Below, piece by piece: positions 3,697 through 34,655 of a DNA stretch of 61,494 nucleotides. Position 1 is the first letter of the stretch, and every line of letters starts with the position of its first letter. Origin of the DNA: Candidatus Omnitrophota bacterium (GTDB taxonomy: Bacteria; Omnitrophota; Gorgyraeia; Pluralincolimonadales; Pluralincolimonadaceae); assembly GCA_041651455.1 (NCBI GenBank), contig JBAZJG010000010.1, positions 1 to 61,494 of the forward strand, written 5' to 3'. Position numbers and translations under genes: made by a program. The notes under the pieces are model-generated. The model worked only from the letters and a program-made list of their open reading frames with translations. It made no database searches and had not been told where the DNA came from.

Positions 3697-3775
3697 TGGC
3701 GGGCCCGACGAGATTTGAACTCGCGGTCTTCAGATCGACAATCTGACGTGCTAGACCAGGCTGCACCACGGGCCC
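3697..3775 (-). tRNA. tRNA-Asp (anticodon GTC), CCA encoded
   Basis: Hand-folded cloverleaf. Acceptor GGGCCCG/CGGGCCC; D stem GTGC/GCAC; anticodon stem TCAGA/TCTGA with loop TTGTCGA; T arm GCGAG-TTCAAAT-CTCGT; discriminator G followed by CCA. Confidence 0.9.
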
Positions 3776-3881: not shown

Positions 3882-3958
3882 TGGTGGGCACTAGAGGACT
3901 TGAACCTCTGACCCTCTGCGTGTAAAGCAGATGCTCTAACCAACTGAGCTAAGCGCCC
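3882..3958 (-). tRNA. tRNA-Val (anticodon TAC), CCA encoded
   Basis: Hand-folded cloverleaf. Acceptor GGGCGCT/AGTGCCC; D stem GCTC/GAGC; anticodon stem TCTGC/GCAGA with loop TTTACAC; T arm AGAGG-TTCAAGT-CCTCT; A followed by CCA. Confidence 0.9.
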
Positions 3959-16613: not shown

Positions 16614-18668
16614 TTATTCTTCGATAAGCGCTTTTATCTGGGGGAGCATCTTGCGTGTCTCCTCCTCGCCGCGCTTGATAAGCTCTTCCGCCTTATAAAG
16701 CTCGAACCAGACCGCGTTCGTGAGTATCGGGTGTATCACGCAGTCCGCTTCGCGCGACGACGCCTCGGCCAGCACGTATTGCATCGCGAGCGAAGTGTTC
16801 ATCATGACATCGAAGACGTTCGGCGCGAAAGTCCTTCGCACCCAGTTATTGAAATTATACGATATGCGCGCGAACACGAAACCGTTCGCGAGCTTCGCCT
16901 CTTCCTTGCGGCGCTTCTGCTCGAATTCGTCGAATATCTTCTTCATCTCGTCCTGGCTCGGGAGGCAGTTGACCGCTATTATCTTCTTCGCGCCGCCTTT
17001 CATCAGTACGTCTATCGGGACCGGGTCGAACGTCCCGCCGTCTATAAGGAAATCGTCCCCGTAACGTATCGGCTTTATTATCGCGGGTATCGAGCATGAC
17101 GCGCGGACCGCGTCCACGAGGCTTCCCTGGTCGAAGACTATGTTCTCGCGGGAACGCAGCGTGTTCGCGACTATCTTGAACGGCGTATGGGTGTCGTGGA
17201 ACGTCTTCCCGCCGAGATATTCTCGAAAAAGCTTCTTCAGGTTATTACCGTTCAGGAAGCCCTGCAGGGGGAATATCGAAAAATCTGCGAGCGAGAGCAG
17301 CATCTTCCTGTCCTTGAACCTCATCGCGACCTTTTCGAGCTCGGCCGCTTCCATGCCCGACACCCAAAAAGCCCCGACTACCGCGCCGATCGAGGTGCCA
17401 GCGACGAAATCTATCGGTATCTTTTCTTTCTCGAGGACCTTCAGCACGCCTATATGGACGAGCCCGAGCGCCGCGCCTGAACCGAGCGCGAGGCCCACAA
17501 GTATCCTTCCTATCTCCCTGGCTATCCTGCGTACCGACCTCGAATAGAGGCACTCAGGCACCGCGAGGACCGGCGGCAGTCCCGCGGCCATCATGCCCGC
17601 GAGCATGCCGAGGTCCGGCAATGTCGCATACGCCTTGTGCCCGAGAAGCTTGATCTCCTCCTCGAACGTCTTTGTCATGACGAATTCGTTTATTATCGCC
17701 TTTATCGTCGTGTCGGGATCCTTTACGGTCTTCTTGAGTTCTTCGATGAGCCGCCCGGTGGACCTGAGGTTATGCTCCCCGGAATCCGTTACGATATGAA
17801 CCAGGTCCGACTGCGTCAATATGGAATACACCGACTTATCCATGTCAACGGGCATGTCCACGATGATATAATTGAATTCGGCGGCTATCGAGCTGAGAAG
17901 GGATATCGCCGCGGCGGGGTCTATGCGCGACGACGGACCGCAGGCGGCGTTAAGCAGGAATATGCCCCCGGCCTCATACTTGACTATCCTGTCTTTTACA
18001 TCCTCGTAACTGAGCATGCCGGATTCCATGCCGACGCACGGGAGTTCGCCTTCCATGCGCAGCATCGAGGAGCACTCTTTCCCGGTCGCGCTCATGTCTA
18101 TCAGCATGACCTTTTTGCGCGTCTCGTAAGCGAGAGCTATCGCGAGGTTCACCGAATACATCGTCCTGCCCGATTTCTTCGCGAGCCCGTAGACCGATAT
18201 TATCGTGGATTCGAATACGGCCTTGGCCCTGGATTCTTTCCTCTTCAGGCGGCGCGAGAGCGATTCGCTGAGCTTCAGCGCGAGCTGCGGGACCTCGTTG
18301 AGCAGAAGGTCAAAATCCTTCTTGTCTATCCTAAGGACCACGGAGTCGTTCACCATCTGCACGGAAGCGGAATGGGGCTCGTTGGTCAGCAGCGATACGA
18401 TCCCGACGTAGTCGCCCCTGTGCAGGAATATGAGGGTCTTCTCTTCGCCCGAAGGCGTCTTCACGAACACTTTCGCGCGGCCGGATACGATGCAATAAAA
18501 AGAATCCGACGGATGGCCTTCCCGGTACAGGATATGGTCCTTCCTGTACTCCGCTATGTAGCAGCGCTCTTCTATAAGCTTCTGCGCCACCTGCGGAAGG
18601 TCCGAAAAAAGCGGTATCTTCCTGACTACCGCAGCTCTGTCTAAATTGCTTAAGTTGGCAGGGTTCAT
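16614..18668 (-). CDS. Cyclic-nucleotide-binding-like domain + degenerate MinD/ParA-like domain + patatin-like phospholipase
   Basis: N-terminal CAP_ED fold (FSDLP..GDYVGIVSLL..PHSASV). The middle domain is ISVYGLAKKSGRTMYSVNLAIALA..MLIDM..IIVDMP. The patatin domain carries GSGAALG, GTSIG and LIDGG. Start is taken at ATG 18668 (MNPANLS). The track TTG 18704 coincides with a promoter-like -35 box. Confidence 0.8.
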   Translation of the reverse strand: MNPANLSNLDRAAVVRKIPLFSDLPQVAQKLIEERCYIAEYRKDHILYREGHPSDSFYCIVSGRAKVFVKTPSGEEKTLIFLHRGDYVGIVSLLTNEPHSASVQMVNDSVVLRIDKKDFDLLLNEVPQLALKLSESLSRRLKRKESRAKAVFESTIISVYGLAKKSGRTMYSVNLAIALAYETRKKVMLIDMSATGKECSSMLRMEGELPCVGMESGMLSYEDVKDRIVKYEAGGIFLLNAACGPSSRIDPAAAISLLSSIAAEFNYIIVDMPVDMDKSVYSILTQSDLVHIVTDSGEHNLRSTGRLIEELKKTVKDPDTTIKAIINEFVMTKTFEEEIKLLGHKAYATLPDLGMLAGMMAAGLPPVLAVPECLYSRSVRRIAREIGRILVGLALGSGAALGLVHIGVLKVLEKEKIPIDFVAGTSIGAVVGAFWVSGMEAAELEKVAMRFKDRKMLLSLADFSIFPLQGFLNGNNLKKLFREYLGGKTFHDTHTPFKIVANTLRSRENIVFDQGSLVDAVRASCSIPAIIKPIRYGDDFLIDGGTFDPVPIDVLMKGGAKKIIAVNCLPSQDEMKKIFDEFEQKRRKEEAKLANGFVFARISYNFNNWVRRTFAPNVFDVMMNTSLAMQYVLAEASSREADCVIHPILTNAVWFELYKAEELIKRGEEETRKMLPQIKALIEE

Positions 18669-18675
18669 CAACTGT

Positions 18676-18704
18676 ATTATATAGGCTATAAAACAAAATG
18701 GCAA
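18676..18704 (-). promoter_or_regulatory. Sigma70-like promoter abutting the patatin-gene ATG (would give a leaderless mRNA)
   Basis: The minus strand reads TTGCCA (18704..18699), a 17-nt spacer, TATAAT (18681..18676), then 7 nt to ATG 18668. No Shine-Dalgarno sequence precedes this ATG. Confidence 0.35.
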
Positions 18705-18721
18705 GCGTGATAACGCCTGCC

Positions 18722-18808
18722 AAAAAAGTAGCCAGCGGCTTTCAAACCCATCCTTGCTGCTTACTGCGATACTGCCGCTTGTTCCTTGGTTCTATTCCAG
18801 CCGCTGGC
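18722..18808 (-). terminator. Terminator-like expression platform: perfect 10-bp long-range stem followed by a U6 tract
   Basis: Minus-strand GCCAGCGGCT (18808..18799) pairs with AGCCGCTGGC (18740..18731) across a 58-nt insert. TAC-TTTTTT follows. The 3-nt gap before the U tract and the large loop make it atypical. Confidence 0.35.
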
Positions 18809-18861
18809 GAAATCCTGTGTCGACCGATGAAGGGAGGCAACCTACGCCTTTGACCTTTTCT

Positions 18862-18960
18862 CCGGTTTCGGTAACCCCGCCGCCCTGCCGTGCCACCTGG
18901 AATGGCCTCAGTTTAGGCCCGGGATTTTGCGTCACGCCCTTTCGGCCCTGATGGGGGTCG
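18862..18960 (-). promoter_or_regulatory. c-di-GMP-I (GEMM-I)-like riboswitch aptamer
   Basis: The minus-strand RNA carries, in order: CAGGGC; a GAAA-capped hairpin; GACGCAAAA (18933..18925); CCCGGGCCUAAAC (CCUAAAC at 18917..18911); and GCGGGGUUACCGA (18880..18868). These are the conserved blocks of the V. cholerae Vc2 aptamer as I recall it. The last block is an exact 13-nt match. The 5' helix is shorter than canonical. Confidence 0.55.
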
Positions 18961-19080
18961 GTGCGCTTTGGGTATTTCGCACCGAGCGTCAGGTCCGGCC
19001 GACGGCCAGACCGCCCTTTCGGTCAATTAAAGTATGCCACATGTCCGTGAAAATACAAGGGGCGTGGAAGGTAAAATCCT

Positions 19081-19977
19081 TCAGCAGTATCCCAGGATCT
19101 TGAGCGCCTGTGGGTCCTTGCGCCAGTTCTCGTGGACCTTGACCCAGAGCTCTATGAAGACGTGCCTTCCGATCAGTTTCTGTATGTCCCTTCTTGCGGC
19201 TTCACCGATATACTTGAGCATCTGCCCCCTGTGCCCGACTATTATCTTCTTCTGCGACTGGCGTTCAACGTATATCGTCGCCCTGATGAATGTCACCTTC
19301 TTCGGCCTCTCGGCGAATTCCTCTATAAGGACCGCTATAGAATGCGGGACCTCCTCGTGCGTCAGCTCGAGCGCCTTCTCGCGGACTATCTCTCCCGCCA
19401 TGAACCTTTCGGTCTTGTCGGTGAACTGGCTGTCCGGGAACATTTTCGGCCCGTACGGAAGGTATTTTATGACCATCGCCAGTACCGCGTCCATGTTGTC
19501 GCCGGTAAGCGCCGAGGTAGGTATCAGCTCCTTAAAATCGTAAAGCTTTGCGGCCTCCTCTATAAGCGGCAGCGCGAGCGATTTGCTCTTGAGGTCGACT
19601 TTGTTTATCAGCAGCAGCGCGGGCTTGCCGGCCTCTTTCACGAGCTTGAATATCAGCTTGTCCTCGTCGGTAATCCCCTTGGTCATGTCTATGATGAATA
19701 TGACGAGGTCGACCTCGAGCAACGAGTCCTTCGCGGCTTTCGTTATATACTTGCCGAGCAGGTTCTTCGGCTTATGTATGCCCGGGGTATCCACGAAGAC
19801 GACCTGCGCGTCCTTGTTCGTCAGTATGCCCTGTATCCTGTTGCGCGTCGTCTCGGGCTTCTCGGTCACTATCGCGACTTTCTCGCCGACGAGCCGGTTC
19901 AGCACCGTCGACTTGCCGACGTTGGGCCTTCCGACTATCGCGACAAAACCGGACTTGATCTTGTTCTCTTCCGCCAT
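19081..19977 (-). CDS. era: GTPase Era
   Basis: G1 motif GRPNVGKST, G3 motif DTPG and G4 motif NKVD, with a KH-domain C-terminus. Confidence 0.92.
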   Translation of the reverse strand: MAEENKIKSGFVAIVGRPNVGKSTVLNRLVGEKVAIVTEKPETTRNRIQGILTNKDAQVVFVDTPGIHKPKNLLGKYITKAAKDSLLEVDLVIFIIDMTKGITDEDKLIFKLVKEAGKPALLLINKVDLKSKSLALPLIEEAAKLYDFKELIPTSALTGDNMDAVLAMVIKYLPYGPKMFPDSQFTDKTERFMAGEIVREKALELTHEEVPHSIAVLIEEFAERPKKVTFIRATIYVERQSQKKIIVGHRGQMLKYIGEAARRDIQKLIGRHVFIELWVKVHENWRKDPQALKILGYC

Positions 19978-27954: not shown

Positions 27955-30627
27955 TTAATATAAGCTGATCTTTTCTATTTCTTTTTTGGCAAGCATCGCC
28001 AGGGCCTTGTATCCATCATAACTGCGTTCCGCGCCCTTTGGGTCTATCGGTTCCCCGATAATAAGTTCGATCTTTCTGGGCCTGATAAAATAGCTGCCCT
28101 TCCCGAGCGCATCCTGCGCTCCTTTGATATATACCGGGACTATCGGGATGCCCAATTCGATCGATAGCATGCCGATGCCCGGCTTGAATTCCCCGATATT
28201 CTTCTGTATTGAACGTGTCCCTTCGGGAAATAGTATTATCGATTTCCCCTGTCTCATTAATTCCTCGCAGACTTTCAATCCTTTGAGAAAATTACCCGAT
28301 CTCTCAAAGGGAAAGATGTTCAAGAATGATTCCGCGGCAATGCGCCGCGGCCTGTTCTTATAGAAGTAATCCGAAGCTGCCGGGGCAAAGACGTCCCTTG
28401 CCATCATGACGGGGAATATGCTGTATAATAACGGGTAATCGAGGTGGCTCGAATGGTTTGCTGCCAGTATAAAAGAGCTTTTTCCCGGAAGATTGCCTTT
28501 CCCCTTCACCGATAGCCTTACATAAACTCTGAAGAATACCTTAAGGGCCGCGGCAGCCATAAGGTGGCAAACGAACATAACCCTGGACCTGGCTATAATG
28601 GCACGCGCTTCGGTGCGCGGGTCAAATTGTTCCTTCTTTTCCGCGCGCCCCTTGTCGTTAATTAGCAGTGCGAGGTCTTTCAGCGTTGCGGCCTTTTGCC
28701 ATTCCTCTTCGGACAGGGATATGCCGAGTTCCTGCTCTATATCGCAGATCAGTTCCACCTTTTGGAGGGAATCTATCCCGAGGTCCGCATATAAGTCGGA
28801 ATCGGCCGATATCTTTTTCGGGTCCATCCCCGCCTTTTTTGCGGTAATGGGCGCTATCTTTTGCAGGGCATCATTAAATATAAGCGAGTCCCCCTCGTTA
28901 CTCCCCGCGGGCTTATCTTGCGGACGGTACGTTTCGGCGATCTTTTGTACTTCTTTCCTCTTTATCTTCCTCGTCGAAGTCTTCGGCAGCTCGTCGAAAT
29001 AGAGCATGAAATCCGGTATCTTCTTATATTCCGCGAGGTTATTGCTCAGGCGGCTTACCTCGGACCCCACTTTCTTCCTGATAAGCTCCTTATCCTTTTT
29101 ATCGGCGCCCTCAAAACGTTCGAGGTTAGGCGCGATCACCGCAAATACTTCCTCCGTGCCTGCCTTGAGCCCTTCGGCCGCCTTCTTGCCGAGGACGCAG
29201 ATCTCCTTTATGTACGGGCTCGCGGACATGACCTCCTCTATCTCTTCCGGAAAGACCTTCTTGCCGCCGCCGAGGACTATAAGGTTCCTTATGCGGCCGG
29301 TAATATACAGGAACCCGTCCCTGTCGAACCTGCCGATGTCGCCTGTATGGAGCCAGCCGTCTTTTATCATCTCGGCGGTCTTTTCGGGGTTCTTGTAATA
29401 TCCTTTCATGACATGGTCACCGCGCGTGACTATCTCGCCCTCTTCGCCGAACGTGCCGTCCGGCTTCATCAGCTTCACTTCGACTCCCGGTATCGGCTTG
29501 CCGACGGAGCCGTATTTCAGTTCCCTGAAGGTGTTGACCGCGATAACCGGCGATGTTTCGGTCAGCCCGTAGCCCTGCAGGATAGTGAACCCCATCGCGT
29601 TAAAATCCATCTCGACCGTCAGGTCGAGCGGCGCACCGCCCGAGACGAAACATCTTAGGTTCCTGCCGAACTGGCTGTGTATCTTTTTGAAAATGTATTT
29701 CCCGGGCTTCATGTTAAGCTTCAGCATGAACCTGCACAGGTGCAGGCACATGAAGAAGAACCGCCTTTGGACGAACGGCAGCGATTGCGCCTTCTTTATT
29801 ATGCCGTCGTGGAACATCTTCAGCACGAGCGGCACCGTTATCATCACTGAAGTGCGGGTCTCGTTCATCAGCGCGATGATGTTCGCCGGCTTCAGGCTGT
29901 CGCAATAGGTTATCGTCGCCCCGACATAGAGAGGCGACAGGAACCCGCCCGTCATCTCGAGCATGTGGTTGAGCGGCAGCATCGAAAGGAAGTTGTCCGC
30001 CTCTGTGTAGTGGACGAGCCTGTTGAGCTCCTTCGCCTGGAACATCAGGTTCCTGTAGGTCAGCTCGACGCCTTTCGCGACGCCCGTCGTGCCGGACGTG
30101 TAGACTATGACCGCGGTATCCTCGACGGCAAGCGGCAGGTACTTCCTGTCGCCGGCCTTCATCTTGAGGTCCTTTATCTTTATCAGGTCGGTACGGGCCG
30201 AATCGTCGAGGAGTAACACCTGCTTCAGTGCCGTGAGCTTAGGCTTGATATTGTCTATCTCCGGAAGGTATTTCTCCGAGACGAACACGAACTTCGTGCC
30301 GCTGTCATTCAGGATGAACTCTATCTCTTTTTCGCTGAGCTTCACGTCGATCGGGACGACTATTCCGCCGCACGAGATGATGCCGAAGAGGGCGATGCCC
30401 CACTCCGGACGCGATTCGGAAAGTATCGCGGCGCGGTCGCCTTTTTCCATCCCCAGCTTAAGCAGCGTTGAAGATACATCGACCGCCCGCTCGCCGAGCG
30501 GGACATATGAGAGCGCGTTCCATCCGTCCTTCGTCTTTATCTGCAGGGCGGTCTTCGAGAACCAGCGCTTGTTTATCGATTCCATTATCTCGTGGATGGA
30601 AAGGTTGTCGAAATCAGGCCTGGGCAT
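27955..30627 (-). CDS. Tri-domain enzyme: acyl-AMP ligase (adenylation) + acyl-carrier (phosphopantetheine) domain + PlsC-type lysophospholipid acyltransferase
   Basis: The adenylation domain carries YTSGTTGVAKGV, GYGLTETS and TGDIG. The carrier motif is DLGIDSLQKVEL. The acyltransferase carries HX4D (ANHSSHLD) and FPEGTRS. Confidence 0.85.
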   Translation of the reverse strand: MPRPDFDNLSIHEIMESINKRWFSKTALQIKTKDGWNALSYVPLGERAVDVSSTLLKLGMEKGDRAAILSESRPEWGIALFGIISCGGIVVPIDVKLSEKEIEFILNDSGTKFVFVSEKYLPEIDNIKPKLTALKQVLLLDDSARTDLIKIKDLKMKAGDRKYLPLAVEDTAVIVYTSGTTGVAKGVELTYRNLMFQAKELNRLVHYTEADNFLSMLPLNHMLEMTGGFLSPLYVGATITYCDSLKPANIIALMNETRTSVMITVPLVLKMFHDGIIKKAQSLPFVQRRFFFMCLHLCRFMLKLNMKPGKYIFKKIHSQFGRNLRCFVSGGAPLDLTVEMDFNAMGFTILQGYGLTETSPVIAVNTFRELKYGSVGKPIPGVEVKLMKPDGTFGEEGEIVTRGDHVMKGYYKNPEKTAEMIKDGWLHTGDIGRFDRDGFLYITGRIRNLIVLGGGKKVFPEEIEEVMSASPYIKEICVLGKKAAEGLKAGTEEVFAVIAPNLERFEGADKKDKELIRKKVGSEVSRLSNNLAEYKKIPDFMLYFDELPKTSTRKIKRKEVQKIAETYRPQDKPAGSNEGDSLIFNDALQKIAPITAKKAGMDPKKISADSDLYADLGIDSLQKVELICDIEQELGISLSEEEWQKAATLKDLALLINDKGRAEKKEQFDPRTEARAIIARSRVMFVCHLMAAAALKVFFRVYVRLSVKGKGNLPGKSSFILAANHSSHLDYPLLYSIFPVMMARDVFAPAASDYFYKNRPRRIAAESFLNIFPFERSGNFLKGLKVCEELMRQGKSIILFPEGTRSIQKNIGEFKPGIGMLSIELGIPIVPVYIKGAQDALGKGSYFIRPRKIELIIGEPIDPKGAERSYDGYKALAMLAKKEIEKISLY

Positions 30628-34181: not shown

Positions 34182-34233
34182 GGTTGGTCCTCTCCCCTTA
34201 ATGATGTATCCCCCATCCCCCGAATCTTCAGTA

Positions 34234-34262
34234 AATATACATTATATATACCGGCGGGTCAA
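34234..34262 (-). promoter_or_regulatory. Sigma70-like promoter of the PEP-CTERM gene
   Basis: The minus strand reads TTGACC (34262..34257), a 17-nt spacer, then TATATT (34239..34234). Confidence 0.4.
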
Positions 34263-34280
34263 ACGAAATTAATTGCTTTT

Positions 34281-34655
34281 TTATAGGACGTATTTGACGG
34301 TGTTGTCGAGGGCCTTCTTGAACTCGAAGACATCCCTGAAGTCCTCGATGGAGTCTTCTTCTGTCTTGGAGAGCAGTCTGGCTTTTATGAGGTTAAATAC
34401 GATGTTCCCGAAATCTTCGGTCTTCGTGACCCCCCAGCTCTCGAGCACCGTACGGGCGAGCGGGCCGAACTGGTCTATCGCGTATTCGCGGAGCCCTTCG
34501 GAGAGTTCCCTGCCGTTGACATGGCGCGGCTTCTCGAACCTCGATACCGTGTGGGTGAGGCCGTTGAGCACAAAGAGGTAAGCGTCGATCTTATATCTCG
34601 GGTCCTTCTCCGCGACCTTTTCGAGTATCCCCGTTATATCCAGGCGTTCCTTCAT
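34281..34655 (-). CDS. Minf_1886-family (Verrucomicrobia/Planctomycetes-type) small conserved protein
   Basis: 124 aa. The blocks HVNGRELSEGLREYAIDQFGPLARTVLESWGV..EDFGNIVFNLI..LLSKTEEDS match my recollection of TIGR04138. Confidence 0.5.
   Translation of the reverse strand: MKERLDITGILEKVAEKDPRYKIDAYLFVLNGLTHTVSRFEKPRHVNGRELSEGLREYAIDQFGPLARTVLESWGVTKTEDFGNIVFNLIKARLLSKTEEDSIEDFRDVFEFKKALDNTVKYVL

Follow-up and report, generated by a model that had tools for sequence, protein, structure and literature searches.

A branched GEMM-I-type RNA cassette upstream of a cyclic nucleotide-binding patatin operon in Candidatus Omnitrophota

What is the RNA that lies between era and a patatin-type lipase gene in a Candidatus Omnitrophota genome, and by what route might it act on the genes that follow? 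We address this question in a stretch of 61,494 nucleotides (nt; hereafter the window) of contig JBAZJG010000010.1 (GenBank assembly GCA_041651455.1), where an earlier, sequence-only reading had proposed a compact riboswitch of the GEMM-I class (c-di-GMP-I, Rfam RF01051), the sensors of cyclic di-GMP (c-di-GMP). The assignment to a GEMM-I-type aptamer is borne out, by homology and covariation rather than by a match of the single sequence. The aptamer is ~75 nt longer than had been thought and has a branched tetraloop arm. Judged from sequence, the element appears to descend from GEMM-I and would work like it, and we file it as a structural and architectural variant of that class.

The locus had been described correctly in its main lines. 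The era gene stops at 19081 and the patatin gene starts with the ATG at 18668, leaving 412 nt between them (about 410 had been given). This is the only large gap in the minus-strand gene train, the rival gap at 34182-34651 being occupied by an open reading frame (ORF) of 124 amino acids (aa). The 96-nt string quoted as the aptamer is an exact match to 18862..18957 on the minus strand, and the end given for it, 18960, overshoots by 3 nt. Its sequence blocks GACGCAAA, CCUAAAC and GGGGUUACCGA do align to the RF01051 consensus. An RF01051 match above the gathering threshold, named beforehand as a check, is absent from the window: a whole-window Rfam search at gathering returned two tRNAs only. Folding energy lends no support, since the quoted segment folds no better than shuffled sequence (z = 0.02).

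Recognition comes from orthologous patatin-operon loci, of which 80 were taken from species-representative genomes and nine from metagenomes with a conserved DNA block as pattern (89 in total, labelled L001-L089); the Rfam scan covered 35 of them. Aptamers of the c-di-GMP-I clan at or above gathering were found upstream of the same gene or operon at 20 of these 35 loci, with 35.0-73.4 bits:

L001 35.0 (closest relative), L005 56.6, L006 38.2, L011 71.1, L015 61.4
L018 40.4, L023 68.8, L030 47.7, L053 66.9
L025 73.4, L027 64.8, L028 66.7, L031 48.9, L034 41.5, L036 72.7
L037 42.2, L038 68.3, L081 54.3, L082 46.2, L083 41.1

A covariance model built from eight relatives, with the window's own subclade excluded (R1), detects the window element at 154.1 bits (E 8.5e-50) and matches 37 of the 89 loci, each time on the gene strand and upstream of the operon. 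Because of R1 and the orthologous Rfam matches, the window element can be regarded as a genuine member of an operon-associated GEMM-I lineage. We file it as a divergent GEMM-I variant by homology, not as a threshold-passing member of RF01051. The RF01051 alignment of the window spans the whole model (positions 1-87), with the tetraloop hairpin looking shortened and the other arm lengthened; the model under-scores the element and misplaces its 5' end because the inserted hairpins described below cannot be placed by it. A weak second R1 match, at 28756-28900 (minus strand) inside an 890-aa ORF, is probably spurious (14.5 bits, E ~0.001 on a rough calibration).

Alignments anchored on a conserved promoter-like box place the start of the aptamer at 19024 and not near 18957, where the sequence-only reading had put it. 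The corrected anatomy is as follows, with hp0, hpA, hpB and hpC denoting hairpins:

18869..19024, minus strand: full GEMM-I-type aptamer, RNA nt 1-156 (promoter-anchored alignments A2 and A3, R1, covariation)
19013..19015, minus strand: equivalent of G20 and base of the tetraloop arm; G10 is 19015, and G11-C12 (19014-19013) pairs with G95-C96 (18930-18929)
18992..19012, minus strand: hp0, a 9-bp hairpin, GGUCUGGCC-GUC-GGCCGGACC, where relatives have an AAA bulge; window subclade only
18958..18985, minus strand: hpA, an inserted 8-bp hairpin with a 12-nt loop, GAAAUACCCAAAGC
18946..18957, minus strand: hpB, a small inserted hairpin, CCC-CCAUCA-GGG
18934..18945, minus strand: hpC, CC-GAAA-GG with its tetraloop at 18943-18940, and the 3' strand of the mid-stem, GCGU, which pairs with ACGC at 18989-18986 (4 bp)
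18925..18933, minus strand: GACGCAAAA, aligned to GACGCAAA of RF01051; C94 (18931) is the equivalent of C44, and A97/A98 (18928/18927) is the A47 region
18873..18926, minus strand: receptor arm (P1b), with the receptor half CCUAAAC at 18917-18911 and a bulged GG at 18881-18880 (equivalent of G83)
18869..18872, minus strand: 3' junction, A153-C154 (C154 is 18871, the equivalent of C92) followed by C155-G156; aligned to the 3' end of RF01051

Read from its 5' end, the aptamer thus consists of a 5' strand and junction, GACCGAAAGGGC (19024-19013 in the promoter-anchored alignment), the branched tetraloop arm, GACGCAAAA, the receptor arm and UUACCG. Every clade member has the promoter-like box CCCTTGnAT-N16-TGGCATACTTTAAT followed directly by TTGACCGAAA(A)GGGYAAAC, which is the canonical GEMM-I 5' junction. 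In L005, L081 and L082, which share this architecture, the RF01051 match begins at the outer 5' junction and the branched arm is handled as an insertion. All 15 clade sequences fit one scheme: junction, 2-bp base, bulge, 4-bp mid-stem, hairpin A, hairpin B, 2-bp GAAA hairpin and a continuous 3' strand. That 3' strand of the tetraloop arm (GAAA, 6 nt, GAC, GC) is identical in length to that of the canonical aptamer in L011, and the three inserted hairpins of the window (hp0, hpA and hpB) lie in the 5' strand. A hairpin occupies the hpB position in 15 of 15 sequences, with differing stems; hp0 is absent from L003, L005, L006 and L007. The middle register of the receptor arm is shifted by 1 nt in the window subclade, a shift for which L089 provides evidence in the form of U-G to U-A changes. 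The CCGAA at the 3' end of the aptamer is invariant in the alignment.

Several structural details of the sequence-only reading fall with its 5' boundary. The C-run that had been assigned to the P1 helix and the AGGG that had been taken as a junction at ~18950 are the two strands of hpB; the C-run pairs with GGG in that hairpin, and the G-run that had been its proposed partner in the P1 helix is the 3' strand of the receptor arm. What looked like a truncated, 3-bp GAAA hairpin marks the far end of a tetraloop arm that is branched and of full length. The suspicion of a structural variant was right insofar as Rfam under-scores one, and wrong in its direction, the arm being expanded by three hairpins and not truncated. 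A kissing contact between the loops of hpB and the receptor arm was also considered, and no covariation for it was seen by inspection.

The fold is supported by covariation in the orthologous regions, a check that had been proposed with the sequence-only reading: helices are kept by compensatory changes in both alignments.

A3, 8 sequences, window subclade not included: pairing in 95.1% of cells, two-sided changes at 13 pairs, 0/500 shuffles as good, slid controls 26-47%
A2, 15 sequences, window included: pairing in 96.6% of cells, two-sided changes at 16 pairs, 0/500 shuffles as good, slid controls at most 44%

Compensatory changes affect six of the seven counted pairs of hpA, with 100% of cells paired, and two of the five pairs of hpB (A3). 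The hp0 hairpin, aligned in seven sequences, likewise has 100% of cells paired and shows G-C to A-U and C-G/U-G changes. A pair of hpC is seen as C-G, U-G and U-A, and the mid-stem has A-U in the window subclade and C-G elsewhere. The receptor arm, too, shows compensatory changes, in its basal, middle and distal parts. The pair C12:G95, which ties the outer junction to GACGC, covaries as C:G in ten sequences and U:A in three, with two mismatches, and the GGG at the junction is invariant in 15 of 15. RNAalifold independently recovers hpA, the mid-stem, the GAAA hairpin and the receptor arm.

Which ligand would such an aptamer bind? In the 15-sequence alignment the pocket equivalents are invariant: G10 (19015) for G20, A97/A98 for the A47 region and C154 (18871) for C92. 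Equally invariant are the elements of tertiary contact, namely the GAAA tetraloop, the CCUAAAC receptor half, and C94 with the bulged G145 (the equivalents of C44 and G83). The roles of G20, C92, the tetraloop and receptor, and the C44-G83 pair in the Vc2 aptamer have been described (PMC11705072). The G that specifies c-di-GMP is indeed kept, as the sequence-only reading had held: the equivalent of G20 is G in 15 of 15 sequences, and not the A20 of GEMM-Ib, the aptamers selective for 3'3'-cyclic GMP-AMP (cGAMP). The window reads GACGCAAAA and not the variant nucleotides of c-di-GMP-I-GGC (RF03167) or c-di-GMP-I-UAU. Some relatives are labelled RF03167, whose consensus is GCGAA; these relatives read GCAAA, and RF03167 wins in them only because it models the P1 helix. 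The pocket nucleotides argue for c-di-GMP over cGAMP or the GGC and UAU variants, and we infer that the window RNA would bind c-di-GMP.

Downstream of the aptamer lies a conserved segment that can fold back on its 5' end:

18822..18868, minus strand: 3' block, with hardly any variation, AAACCGGAGAAAAGGUCAAAGGCGUAGGUUGCCUCCCUUCAUCGGUC; the terminal 13 nt (18834-18822) base-pair with the RNA 5' end and junction (19024-19014)

This closing helix joins GACCGA-AAGGG, the 11 nt with which the RNA begins, to its complement CCCUU-CA-UCGGUC (18834-18822), and it is formed both by RNAalifold and by the minimum free energy fold of the whole leader. It sequesters the first pair of the tetraloop arm together with the nucleotide equivalent to G20. 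An equivalent closing helix of 12-14 bp, at about -20 kcal/mol, is present in 28 cassettes of the wider family with compensatory differences (GACCGA/UCGGUC, GCCGAU/AUCGGC, GCUGAU/AUCAGC and GCUGAC/GUCGGC; AAAGG/CCUUU against AAGG/CCUU). The distant strand 18827-18822 can add 6 bp to the P1 helix of the aptamer, yet it also belongs to the competing helix.

Among hosts with patatin proteins of 58-100% identity, the ~40-nt block CCGAAACCGGAGAAAAGGUCAAAGGCGUAGGUUGCCUCC (18832-18870) hardly varies; it finds no match in Rfam and shows no compensatory changes. A GGAG:CUCC pairing within the 3' block was rejected, having no compensatory support and being broken in L003 and L006. So was a leader peptide (UUG at nt 185, 33 codons), whose frame is shifted by 1-2-nt indels between clade members. 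No conserved ORF on the cassette transcript was found among the clade members.

Whether such an RNA could act as a leader of the patatin messenger depends on the signals that flank it:

19031..19058, minus strand: promoter P1 of the RNA; -35 TTGTAT (19058-19053), 16-nt spacer, extended -10 TGgCATACT (19039-19031); predicted start G 19024
18723..18808, minus strand: terminator T1; 10-bp stem GCCAGCGGCU/AGCCGCUGGC, loop of ~58 nt, then UAC-UUUUUU; -28.9 kcal/mol
18689..18722, minus strand: terminator T2; intrinsic hairpin followed by AUUUUGUUUUA, matched by a terminator scan; -16.4 kcal/mol; conserved in the window subclade
18676..18704, minus strand: promoter P2; TTGCCA (18704-18699), N17, TATAAT (18681-18676), 7 nt to the ATG
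16614..18668, minus strand: downstream gene, a 684-aa protein with cyclic nucleotide monophosphate (cNMP)-binding, ParA/MinD-like (AAA_31) and patatin domains (Pfam PF00027, PF13614, PF01734)

Promoter P1 is a prediction from conservation and is too weak for a consensus promoter scan: the box CCCTTGnAT-N16-TGGCATACTTTAATTGACCG stands at a constant distance from the RNA 5' end in 17 of 17 clade members, regardless of the upstream gene. The T1 stem covaries, reading CCAACGGCU/AGCCGUUGG in L003 and CCGGCGGUU/AACCGCCGG in L007, and T1 is absent from L002, L016 and L086. The T1 loop (18735-18800) has three A(N)GGA motifs, CACAGGAU, CAAGGAAC and CAAGGAUG, that look like sites for CsrA-type proteins; neither L001 nor L003 conserves them, and they were set aside. 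No antiterminator pairing of the freed 3' segment with T1, T2 or a second hairpin was found, the constrained folds of the window, L027, L056, L038, L023 and L011 being unchanged.

Promoter P2 matches the consensus at 11 of 12 positions, with 0.5 such sites expected by chance, and its -35 is contained in the 3' arm of T2. No Shine-Dalgarno sequence precedes the patatin ATG, whereas AAGGAG is found before other genes in the window. Of 29 cassettes, 26 have a TATAAT-like box at a distance of 6-12 nt from the start codon, on its 5' side, and the same layout of -10 box and ATG is present at orthologous loci lacking the RNA (L008 and L013; in L009, by inspection, a TATGAT box). In the window, L008, L009 and L013 alike, a TATAAT (or TGnTATCAT) box stands 7-9 nt before the patatin ATG and there is no Shine-Dalgarno sequence. 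The patatin mRNA is therefore probably leaderless and transcribed from P2. A riboswitch in the 5' untranslated region (UTR) of the patatin mRNA, as had been implied, is not well supported, with two terminators and a conserved TATAAT-N7-ATG promoter in between.

We take the ATG at 18668 as the likely start codon. The alternative start, a TTG giving 696 aa, was rejected: most homologues have 682-684 aa, and in L005 an in-frame TAA lies 4 codons 5' of the ATG. Gene callers often begin the patatin ORF (16614-18704) at the TTG of the -35 hexamer, giving this 696-aa form; the TTG is in frame only because the spacing from promoter to ATG is 36 nt.

The cassette is not confined to the window. At least 29 of 80 genomes carry it in synteny with the patatin operon, with a variable upstream neighbour (era or a TPR gene) and a constant downstream operon. 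At least one further terminator-like hairpin lies 3' of the closing helix in 28 of the 29 cassettes, and ~12 have at least five U within 9 nt after that helix; in L011 the closing helix is the only terminator. The canonical GEMM-I aptamers at the orthologous locus (L011, L027, L056) share with the window the promoter, aptamer, closing helix, terminator, TATAAT-N7-12-ATG and downstream operon. They differ in having a simple 6-bp tetraloop hairpin, in a closing helix that often stands directly before the U-tract, and in a GH1 beta-glucosidase that is often the first gene, with patatin second. Compared with RF01051 and Vc2, the window keeps the three-helix junction AGGGC...GACGCAAA...UUACCG, a covarying receptor arm, the pocket (G20, A47-region and C92) and the equivalents of GAAA, CCUAAAC and C44/G83. 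Its tetraloop arm, in contrast, is multi-branched (hp0, hpA, hpB) with the AAA bulge replaced, and its P1 helix retains only 2 bp; a 3' strand farther away is able to close the domain as a whole.

We favour the following explanation, which starts from the homology, fold, closing helix, terminator hairpins, promoter motifs and synteny set out above and which, taken whole, we consider probable, if with moderate confidence: a branched c-di-GMP sensor RNA (19024-18822, minus strand), built as its own promoter-to-terminator unit with a competing closing helix, would have its output in cis through polymerase traffic. Transcription from promoter P1 at G19024 would yield a discrete RNA of ~300-335 nt whose conformation reports c-di-GMP. 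Ligand binding and the closing helix would be mutually exclusive, at least in the inner AAGGG:CCCUU part, so that c-di-GMP would release at least this part; the outer three pairs may stay closed, as a clamp, during exchange of the inner part. In the ancestral form and in relatives with a U-tract, closing helix and U-tract together would be a ligand-sensitive terminator. This terminator would decide whether polymerases from promoter P1 reach the terminator with which the -35 and spacer of P2 overlap, and the operon would be affected in cis via polymerase traffic and not via a 5' UTR. A discrete sensor RNA acting in this manner is favoured because the aptamer is succeeded by a constitutive terminator and then by a separate, leaderless promoter. 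The step of interference in cis is speculative, and taken alone we consider it somewhat less likely than not.

Several observations weigh against this explanation. The window itself reaches only 26.4 bits against RF01051 at 18867-18957 (gathering 35; E=0.0038 in a permissive search of 481 nt, 18650-19130), and the other members bearing hp0 (L002, L016, L084, L085, L086 and L089) also stay below gathering. The AAA bulge, well conserved in canonical GEMM-I, is replaced by hp0. The near P1 helix has 2 bp only, C4-G156 and G5-C155, both invariant, and in Vc2 short P1 helices weaken binding (PMC11705072). R1 placed its first five positions on the 3' half of hp0 and not on 19024-19020. We do not accept R1 as arbiter of the 5' junction, considering this an alignment artefact that avoids a 21-nt insertion; because the R1 alignment misses it, the outer junction in the window rests on the promoter-anchored alignment and on the covariation of C12:G95. 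The closing helix is invariant inside the window's clade, its covariation coming from more distant relatives only, and in the window no U-tract follows it. Coupling of ligand and termination was not seen in the window, T1 and T2 folding identically whether the aptamer was left unconstrained or fixed in its bound fold.

The main rival, possible but on balance unlikely, is a stand-alone c-di-GMP-binding small RNA that buffers c-di-GMP or acts in trans, for instance by exposing or hiding the 3' block, with no effect in cis. It would account well for a transcript that in 28 of 29 cassettes has one or two terminators as well as a promoter to itself, for a patatin gene with its own leaderless promoter that is present also where the RNA is missing, for window terminators that are insensitive to the aptamer state in silico, and for a nearly invariant 3' block, which suggests a partner. 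There are precedents in the merRNA of Bdellovibrio bacteriovorus (PMC3627812) and the Vc2-terminated small RNAs of V. cholerae (bioRxiv 10.1101/617340), GEMM-I aptamers that reside in discrete non-coding transcripts. However, merRNA lacks a conserved downstream ORF and is massively expressed, whereas the cassette type of the window keeps synteny with one operon phylum-wide. Action in trans needs no such pattern as the strict adjacency and orientation to the patatin operon, maintained down to ~37-40% protein identity while the upstream neighbour changes. Moreover, the 3' arm of T2 doubles as the -35 of P2, and no target complementarity was found.

A classical ON-switch in the 5' UTR, in which c-di-GMP blocks a terminator and read-through into patatin gives a translated mRNA with a long leader, appears improbable. 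A U-tract does follow the closing helix in ~12 of the 29 relatives, with that helix the sole terminator in L011, and GEMM-I riboswitches with dual terminators exist: Bc1 of the Bacillus cereus group has a GEMM-I aptamer, a long platform and two tandem intrinsic terminators, the second insensitive to ligand (PMC11218506). The window aptamer likewise precedes two tandem terminators. But Bc1 resides in a 5' UTR and is subject to translational coupling, and its second terminator masked any response (PMC11218506), whereas the window has a separate leaderless promoter after the terminators and a switch helix that uses the 5' strand of the aptamer and not the 3' half. The closing helix of the window has no U-tract, the two further terminators have no alternative pairing, and the ATG, in a genome that uses AAGGAG, has no Shine-Dalgarno sequence and a conserved TATAAT-N7-ATG arrangement instead.

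We regard a 3'3'-cGAMP-selective (GEMM-Ib) or otherwise re-specified variant as very unlikely. The clade is divergent, and some G20 GEMM-I aptamers are promiscuous. However, the G in 15 of 15 sequences, an A47 region reading AAA, a C at the C92 equivalent and the lack of an A20 or GGC/UAU signature all speak for the ordinary specificity, and the relatives matched by RF03167 carry A at the variant-defining position. A decaying relic that binds no ligand, its AAA bulge destroyed by the insertion of hp0, is hardly credible: the Rfam score is below threshold and conserved but non-responding aptamers are documented (PMC11218506), yet the pocket and tertiary-contact nucleotides are all invariant, and compensatory changes maintain the helices in the hp0-bearing subclade too, hp0 itself included. 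The compact aptamer of the sequence-only reading (18957-18867, with the truncated 3-bp GAAA hairpin and C-run/G-run P1), although it is the register picked by Rfam local alignment and although an inner AGGGC-like mimic is present in the window subclade and L006, is highly improbable. L003, L088, L083, L005 and L082 lack the inner AGGGC and keep the outer GGGYAAAC junction, C-run and GGG form a covarying hairpin, and the G-run finds its partner within the receptor arm. With only 3 bp between it and the junction, a tetraloop would be too near to contact its receptor, and the register scores below gathering.

A number of observations concern the surroundings of the cassette. The gene upstream of it in the window encodes Era (Pfam), and two tRNA genes lie at 3700-3775 and 3885-3958 (minus strand). 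The 684-aa patatin protein has 583 homologues, the named ones almost all from Candidatus Omnitrophota and from metagenome-assembled genomes. Records for the genomes of L002, L006, L012 and L057 and for protein P0100 are labelled Planctomycetia, Deltaproteobacteria or Thermoproteota; such labels on Omnitrophota-type loci are likely due to binning or labelling problems. After the cassette, many Omnitrophota carry a GH1 beta-glucosidase gene, which adjoins the patatin gene or overlaps it (e.g., L023:1743-3002 and L037:1542-2768), and in L006 and L081 a nitroreductase-like gene takes the GH1 position before patatin. A scan of the 61-kb window for GGDEF/EAL motifs found none, which is uninformative at such a scale.

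L037 also carries a second GEMM-I aptamer (95-180, 57.7 bits), 1.1 kb upstream of its patatin-operon cassette. The 3' arm of its terminator pairs with the 3' half of the aptamer, and a 169-aa secreted protein led by a Shine-Dalgarno sequence and a 109-aa PilZ-like ORF follow (ORFs 272-781 and 838-1167). This aptamer is of the same class and phylum as the window element and has a classical design instead; because of this, the layout of closing helix and leaderless gene appears specific to the patatin operon.

In the literature searched we found no report of GEMM-I in Omnitrophota, none of riboswitch-controlled promoter occlusion and, in agreement with the sequence-only reading, no paper linking GEMM-I to patatin-type lipases. 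Beyond the favoured explanation, we tentatively suggest that the cassette is an insulated c-di-GMP-sensing RNA gene, rather than a 5'-UTR riboswitch, kept upstream of a leaderless cNMP/patatin operon throughout Omnitrophota. Its output would be riboswitch-controlled promoter occlusion, or that of a trans-acting or buffering RNA displaying the invariant 3' block in one state only; the branched arm would be a lineage-specific elaboration and the output logic unlike that of all characterised GEMM-I switches.

The sensor class itself is well known; what is unusual is the branched arm, the Rfam blind spot, the closing helix on the 5' strand and the insulated cassette. If our interpretation is correct, a whole GEMM-I subclade escapes the Rfam threshold through one branched arm, and because of this escape model-based surveys would undercount c-di-GMP riboswitches in uncultivated phyla. 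Hairpins in the 5' strand opposite a 3' strand of exact length would represent a natural experiment on the tolerance of the GEMM-I fold. A promoter of its own, a switch helix that uses the 5' strand of the aptamer, a terminator that overlaps the promoter of the following gene, and the leaderless nature of that gene would together form an unusual regulatory arrangement, and c-di-GMP sensing would be linked to an NTE-like, cNMP-binding patatin lipase, joining two nucleotide-messenger systems.

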